Assembly (NCBI GenBank): GCA_964016885.1
Contig: OZ024761.1
Coordinates: 26,846,001 to 26,910,000, forward strand
Origin: Eledone cirrhosa
Taxonomy: Eukaryota
Reading direction: 5' to 3'
Length of the DNA stretch: 64,000 nucleotides
Positions within the stretch are counted from its first letter, which is position 1. Each line of letters opens with the position of its first letter. Made by a program: the position numbers and the translations under genes. The notes under the pieces were generated by a model, which worked only from the letters and a program-made list of their open reading frames with translations, made no database searches and was not told where the DNA came from. This document shows positions 37,705-38,037 of this stretch, piece by piece.

Positions 37705-37766
<62 letters not shown>

Positions 37767-37777
37767 TTAATATAGAT

Positions 37778-37830
37778 GAGATTCTACAGGACTAGAACTG
37801 TTTCATTCTTTAGAAATCATCAGGAATCTC
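37778..37830 (-). ncRNA. Predicted type I hammerhead ribozyme (inverted twin)
   Basis: Exact reverse complement of 37836-37888. Confidence 0.8.
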
Positions 37831-37835
37831 ATCAG

Positions 37836-37888
37836 GAGATTCCTGATGATTTCTAAAGAATGAAACAGTTCTAGTCCTGTAGAATCTC
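37836..37888 (+). ncRNA. Predicted type I hammerhead ribozyme
   Basis: GAGATTC-CTGATGA-T-TTC(TAAA)GAA-T-GAA-ACAG(TTCTAGTC)CTGT-A-GAATCTC: 7-bp stem I, intact core, GUA cleavage triplet (cut after 37881). Confidence 0.8.
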
Positions 37889-37969
37889 ATCTATATTAAA
37901 ACTGTTATACTCTGCAATGTATTGAGTACCTTACTTACTGTGGTTACCTCCGATTCAACCCGGAATAAC

Positions 37970-38037
<68 letters not shown>

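Follow-up and report, generated by a model that had tools for sequence, protein, structure and literature searches.

The 208-bp unit at positions 37763–37970 of the DNA analysed here is best understood as a 5′-truncated insertion, in which the hammerhead-bearing end of a pseudo-LTR (pLTR) is joined to a mirror copy that was likely built during integration (probability about 0.9). The unit is almost certainly the 3′ end of the pLTR of an autonomous Penelope-like element (PLE), and motif comparison makes it highly probable that this parent is a new family of the Hydra clade. The DNA, called the window below, comprises 64,000 nt of Eledone cirrhosa (contig OZ024761.1, positions 26,846,001–26,910,000), and all coordinates are those of the window.

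The unit consists of two inverted 68-bp arms (37763–37830 and 37836–37903), which are exact reverse complements around a 5-nt centre, and a 67-bp tail, with (TA)n on both sides (Table 1). A preliminary description of this DNA had reported back-to-back type I hammerhead ribozymes (HHRs) inside (TA)n, and a descriptor scan of the window indeed finds a complete motif on each strand. The plus-strand core starts at 37843, with a 7-bp stem I and a predicted cut after A37881; the minus-strand core starts at 37823, with its cut site at 37785. The two motifs are a single sequence and its mirror image, not independent ribozymes. The type I core CUGANGA/GAAA/UH is present, with three helices and an open stem I: CUGAUGA occupies 37843–37849, a 3-bp stem II stands behind U10.1·U11.1, and GAAA leads to stem III, with its semi-palindromic 8-nt loop III (UUCUAGUC), and then to GUA. 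The outer G–C pair of the stem I first described as GAGAUUC/GAAUCUC is absent from the parent, whose stem I has 6 bp with C before it.

Table 1. Parts of the unit at 37.8 kb and related copies in the window
Feature	Position	Strand	Remark
(TA)n target, left flank	37708..37763	.	
Inverted arm, mirror of element -1 to +67	37763..37830	-	Intact HHR motif; no tail
Junction insert ATCAG	37831..37835	.	Absent from 33 other two-armed copies
Non-parental G ahead of first element base (parent: C)	37836..37836	+	G in 11/12 copies starting at +1
Type I hammerhead motif of pLTR	37837..37887	+	A37837 is the predicted transcription start (+1)
Remainder of direct arm to +67	37888..37903	+	End is the putative second RT start site
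Tail (in full copies, 5′ UTR before ORF)	37904..37970	+	3′ end is the putative first RT start site
(TA)n target, right flank	37971..38036	.	
Older copy, sister subfamily, stem I AGCUUC/GAAGCU	35423..35610	+	Plus core broken, minus stem I bulged
Older copy, third subfamily, direct arm on minus strand	31998..32180	-	
Degenerate tandem fragments of the same family	61925..62440	-	Half HHRs, loop CUUC

The exact 55-nt tail has 1,874 copies in the genome (reversed control, 0), and direct arm and tail are 99–100% identical in 40/40 scored copies; the family of the 37.8-kb unit (family A) is young and large. The HHR core pattern is not a product of chance, because its 35 places give 26,903 exact genome matches against none for a reversed control. 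Positional counts refer to the first 90 of the 1,874 exact-tail matches, all on contig C1 and all requiring an exact tail; two duplicates (L273 and L199) were dropped, and 88 copies were counted. Similarity-ranked match lists, which are biased toward the first bases of the query, were left out of the breakpoint counts.

The PLE origin suspected in the preliminary description is verified by the continuation of HHR and tail directly into an ORF for RT and GIY-YIG domains (40/40 scored junction matches, 98–100%) and by full pLTR–ORF–pLTR copies. The search for longer copies joined to such an ORF was run: among 20 copies fetched at 10 kb, the 713/714-aa ORF is open in 8, a second sense HHR lies 4.3–6.3 kb downstream in 12, and an inverted pLTR or HHR lies upstream in 8. 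The pair L067/L068, the first seen to be linked to an ORF, represents a single 8-kb duplication whose frame is broken, and it was counted once. The parent is autonomous, and the non-autonomous family first proposed is not supported. The parent's layout is pLTR, RT and GIY-YIG ORF, microsatellite-rich 3′ UTR, and pLTR; some copies run upstream through a unique stretch of ~400 bp and through long arrays of microsatellite. The 3′ UTR, between the ORF end and the 3′ pLTR, holds 2–3.5 kb of microsatellite in which (TA) and (TG) are mixed and short islands are conserved (L120, L112, L115), and the parent element may itself be disseminating microsatellites, and with them its own targets. Near family copies (L035, L036, L074) lie pieces of PLE-like RT and GIY-YIG ORFs of another type, together with LINE and LTR-element ORFs.

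The protein is encoded by a single 713-aa ORF, with a telomerase-like RT followed by a GIY-YIG endonuclease at the C-terminus, as in EN+ PLEs. Its structure model (pLDDT 92.9) has telomerase RT (TERT) as each of its top five fold matches (best E 1.2e-9). Pfam GIY-YIG matches fall under the cut-off (E 0.0019 and E 0.069), Pfam RT models do not match the protein, and a sequence search of the PDB with it returns three chance matches only. Scoring of 8,000 candidates yields 693 homologs, nearly all unnamed; across 100 aligned homologs YRDD and the Y..YxG/R/H/E/N residues are invariant. Other EN+ PLE features are also seen: pLTRs from partial tandems with an HHR, an inverted 5′-truncated copy at the 5′ end, and a tail at one end only.

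The assignment to the Hydra clade of C-terminal EN+ PLEs, whose defining motifs and HHRs are given by Craig et al. (2021, PMC8557442), comes from a comparison of motifs by eye with the published alignment. As in that clade, one ORF encodes RT and then GIY-YIG, the target is (TA)n (86/88 positional copies run into it), and a type I HHR lies near the 3′ end. The Hydra RWK motif appears as RWRA at 38–41 (RWK in 69/100 homologs), and the Hydra change from DKG to DKT at 116–118 in the alignment of 100 homologs. The CxCX5C linker (C566-C568-C574) and the CxxC and CxH that flank the E and N residues (C666-C669-E672, N685, C694-H696) are each kept in 97–99/100. A CCHH zinc finger within GIY-YIG is absent, C589 (11/100) and C598 (mostly gap) being unconserved and not CxxC. 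Since these motifs are Hydra's, the idea of membership in Neptune/Nematis was dropped. Among the listed H. magnipapillata HHRs, ctgatgat...tgaa is frequent, with the same U·U at 10.1-11.1, and Penelope-13_HM likewise has a 5′-truncated inverted copy with an HHR on both strands. In contrast to the Hydra PLEs described in the parts of that paper used for comparison, which are mostly <3 kb with an HHR loop III of 1–3 nt, the element here has a unit of ~5–6 kb, a microsatellite-filled 3′ UTR, an 8-nt semi-palindromic loop III with a 3-bp stem II, and very high stump numbers; its HHR sequence also differs from that of Hydra-1_oBim, a Hydra family from an octopus.

The short copies, or stumps, have preferred ends. 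The 3′ end falls within three bases (about +134) in 79/90 positional copies, and the outer ends of inverted arms lie at +60 in 15/56 and at +67, the endpoint of the arm at 37763–37830, in 22/56. The 5′ starts of the 88 copies are distributed as 29 at +1/+2, 10 at +3 to +9, 23 at +10 to +78, 3 at -19 to -1 and 23 long; none of the 88 starts between -20 and -109, and breakpoints at -129 to -157 and -420 to -443 are alignment limits rather than real ends. This 5′ wall lies ~30 nt behind a TATA box (in four subfamily representatives, AAATA begins at -26 to -28), which the short stumps do not contain. In many copies broken downstream of the wall the inverted arm still extends to +1/+2, which points to loss when the ends were joined or later. 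Copies linked to the ORF were not accepted as a test of the start site, since the query was biased toward those with a promoter.

In 11/12 family A copies that start at +1, the base before it is a non-parental G. This fits an RT that copies the cap, but the same base can also arise through microhomology to the inverted arm or by snap-back on stem I; the G at 37836 is possibly of either cap or microhomology origin. In a second subfamily most cases of G are explained by the inverted arm.

A sister PLE, family B, has the same stump architecture (8,632 exact tails), and in 1/30 long copies its tail leads to an ORF 47–54% identical to that of family A. Most long copies scored have a U3–A8 HHR core, with the predicted promoter in a long loop II; the stumps hold only the 3′ half of the ribozyme, and the G before +1 occurs in 1/4 copies starting there. 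Of 77 family B copies, 37 start at -4 to +7 of an initiator-like site, 5 are long, 35 start further downstream, and none starts from -5 to -94. AAATA lies at -24/-26, and the wall falls inside loop II of the HHR. In the window, family B sites occur at about 8.8–9.0, 24.9–25.1, 25.9–26.1, 26.5, 32.5–32.6, 38.04–38.20, 50.7, 52.2 and 54.0 kb; others are at L388 and L414.

It might be supposed that ribozyme structure sets the wall, RT stalling or snapping back at the end of stem I, with no transcription start involved. The wall in family A does coincide with the exact end of the 6-bp stem I, and the first bases of the window's centre match the 3′ strand of that stem. In family B, however, the wall lies ~50 nt downstream of the stem I edge yet at the same distance from AAATA; it thus likely follows the promoter and not the edge of the ribozyme, and a structural barrier seems unlikely to us. 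A 3′ splice site is a weaker candidate. The parent has a T-rich tract and CAG at this place, at stem I, and the intron of D. virilis Penelope ends at helix I (PMC4209133). Splicing would nevertheless be hard to reconcile with the short copies, 29/88 of which begin at the A or G of CAG and only 3 at the next base, and which share no common upstream exon; we consider it improbable. The shared start of the stumps, in both families, likely marks the transcription start of the element RNA. Among the literature listings and the open papers cited here, we found no published cap-site wall in PLE stumps.

The palindrome itself seems to be a by-product of insertion. An inverted arm is present in 49/65 short and 5/23 long positional copies, and none of 56 such arms reaches into the tail. 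Loop II is the same in both arms of all 33 two-armed copies in which both loops could be read, and adjacent head-to-head pairs among the first 100 of the 26,903 core matches, judged by eye, are concordant in 20/20. The 33 copies nevertheless have 32 distinct centres, none of them that of the window. From unique centres and concordant loops it follows that each insertion event forms its mirror arm on the same template as its direct arm, and that the palindrome is not itself copied. A family that propagates as a palindrome, as first envisaged, does not agree with these counts.

In a transcript of the whole unit a plain 68-bp hairpin is predicted to lie 77–80 kcal/mol below the HHR fold, and the predicted probability of the HHR helices is 0.000 on both strands. 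Both arms carry an intact HHR in only 9/90 positional copies. In a single arm the HHR fold is predicted at 3.4–6.5 kcal/mol above the minimum. In a computed test of dimer formation, stem III gives -12.8 kcal/mol as a self-duplex versus -1.4 as a hairpin, but 12.5% of loop shuffles perform equally well. Given the stability of the predicted hairpin, which would sequester the HHR, cleavage from both strands of the stump is highly unlikely, and the prediction does not bear out the claim that RNA from either strand can cut itself. The stump is predicted to be a dead end and not a two-way ribozyme. The HHR is functional, if at all, in the RNA of the parent, where it would probably need to dimerize or be assisted by protein; published PLE HHRs show weak cleavage, in dimeric form or when a protein assists (PMC11167929, PMC4209133).

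The idea of a retrozyme-like, non-autonomous family, mobile as a palindrome and able to cleave itself on either strand, can be judged from these observations. The two intact motifs at 37.8 kb and the thousands of copies are what suggest such a family, and an RNA started in the centre, or a single arm, could fold (3.4–4.4 kcal/mol above the minimum). Yet the near-absence of repeated centres largely refutes it, and the hairpin stability, the rarity of copies with both arms intact and the lack of a TATA box in the stumps oppose it as well. Non-LTR retrozymes are also small, non-coding and PLE-related with a type I HHR, but in the cited parts of the literature they are tandem direct repeats of 150–450 bp that give rise to circular RNA (PMC7229834; bioRxiv 10.64898/2026.07.22.740005). 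The units here stand head to head, each with a new centre, and no tandem direct arrays occur among the positional copies; the retrozyme comparison of the preliminary description was accordingly abandoned, and this explanation is very improbable. A MITE, or a DNA transposon of the fold-back type, that contains an HHR-like motif by chance would also be short, palindromic, TA-flanked and of high copy number, but the asymmetric tail, the centres that vary, the uninterrupted passage into an RT ORF and the structure-conserving variation leave it next to no probability.

Returning to the hammerhead of the PLE parent, its sequence variation fits selection for the ribozyme. In 100 promoter-bearing copies the core columns are 96–100% conserved and the parental stem I has 6 bp. 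In 30 of these, which were hand-picked for diversity and are related rather than independent, 95.9% of cells are paired and 2/13 pairs show two-sided change, both in stem I (A–U/C–G and A–U/G–C); stems II and III of the same 30 show no compensatory change. The covariation of stem I claimed earlier is real, then, but confined to two pairs, and GGCUUUC/GAAGCC requires a bulge; it appears to reflect few events inherited by many copies. The observation that stem II is kept while its loop varies holds in 30 positional matches, with 11 loop II types and stem II columns conserved in 27–30/30 even though the search pattern left them free. So does the departure from a Watson–Crick pair, usual in type I HHRs, at position 10.1-11.1, which is U·U in 29/30 and C·U in 1/30. 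Standard motif searches miss the ribozyme, as had been anticipated: a targeted Rfam run gives a weak Hammerhead_3 match (14.5 bits versus a gathering threshold of 48.5; E 0.73), and the best 150 of 374 Rfam matches on the full window are microsatellite-driven, mostly to miRNA models, and all below gathering. One subfamily (L080:2455-2518, L371) has N7 = A, a variation at the only free core position, with AUCU as loop II and, in loop III, a stronger palindrome (UACUAGUC).

A run-off mechanism from the transcription start site would accommodate these features, and from the sequence evidence we incline modestly toward it. Transcription from the TATA box of the pLTR would give a capped RNA whose first base is that of HHR stem I, and the endonuclease would nick (TA)n. 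RT would start internally at +134 and run off the 5′ end of the RNA after ~135 nt, like strong-stop cDNA. The same template would also give rise to the mirror arm: the cDNA would fold back on itself, or a second cDNA, primed on the other target strand, would start at +60/+67. Head-to-head joining of the two ends would then involve microhomology or short inserts. Full copies would need read-through RNA or a template jump. The fixed +134 end, the +60/+67 arm ends and the lack of tail in the arms match two internal RT start sites, one on either side of the tail. Stumps may then be strong-stop-like cDNAs that map the cap site and two RT start sites in vivo, with head-to-head pLTRs arising where ends meet at the RNA 5′ end. 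Promoter position would decide ribozyme content: family A RNA would begin at the first base of stem I, and family B RNA inside loop II, so that only the downstream read-through pLTR carries a whole hammerhead. The job of the HHR would be 3′-end processing. We give this extended interpretation slightly better than even odds. If it is true, thousands of genomic copies map the cap site and RT start sites of a PLE.

A close parallel, so far as the cited parts of the work extend, is Poseidon PAc of Anolis (Frangieh et al. 2024, PMC11167929). In vitro it uses two internal RT start sites, and both target strands are nicked and extended. As predicted for the element here, an HHR lies just upstream of two start sites that bracket the tail, and the target is likewise AT-rich; insertion in vitro does not need HHR cleavage. 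Poseidon PAc belongs to another clade, and its ORF starts in stem II, whereas here the ATG is ~185 nt behind the predicted start and the tail ~67 nt. Adineta vaga Penelope (Arkhipova et al. 2013, PMC3846280) resembles the present case in its head-to-head inverted pLTR with tail on one side, junction palindromes, TATA and Inr-like motifs in the pLTR, and solo pLTRs. Self-priming on an antisense template was proposed there; the wall and two fixed outer ends seem here to favour run-off at the 5′ end of the sense RNA.

Minimal PLE hammerheads (Cervera and de la Pena 2014, PMC4209133) are likewise type I HHRs in pLTRs with a palindromic loop III. Dual HHRs on opposite strands, 100–700 bp apart, were noted in that work, as was weak activity that needs dimers. 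Their G10.1–C11.1 is highly conserved, unlike the U·U found here; natural U·U is also described in PMC3088659 and for axolotl HHR_Amex2 (PMC7229834). D. virilis Penelope has a TATA-less promoter, which differs from the element here, and an intron that ends at helix I, the spot where CAG occurs here (PMC2377424, PMC4209133).

As a ribozyme discovery the unit is ordinary, since hammerheads in PLEs, inverted 5′ copies and the U·U variant have all been published for the Hydra clade. What gives it value is that the family is clean, young and present in high copy number, a case in which to ask how PLEs make head-to-head pLTRs and what the HHR is for. The predicted start sits at a different place relative to the HHR in each of the two sister families, which can be compared directly, and open ORFs are available. 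The case also cautions that paired opposite-strand HHR matches in genomes of this kind are scars left by integration and not ribozymes that act in both directions.

Two older copies in the window (Table 1), whose nearest relatives are 93–96% alike, belong to other subfamilies. Hammerheads on both strands had been described at three loci; this is correct at 37.8 kb, whereas both arms are flawed at the other two. At 35.5 kb the plus arm has the broken core CUGAUGG and GAAG, and stem I of the minus arm pairs only with a bulge. At 32.1 kb the plus (inverted) arm lacks CUGAUGA and the minus (direct) arm has mismatches in stems II and III.

Another repeated inverted element, at 35676–35730, 36038–36092 and 59492–59546, matches CUGAUGA/GAAA with an 8-bp stem I and a palindromic UGCGCA helix III, and is possibly a third HHR-bearing family. 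Perfect or near-perfect palindromes of other repeat families at 31244–31398, 31659–31759 and 35834–35934 are probably head-to-head scars of the same type. The window also contains two GC-rich tandem arrays with 97% matches, at 2714–3418 (79 bp × 8.9) and 3729–5874 (82 bp × 26.1).
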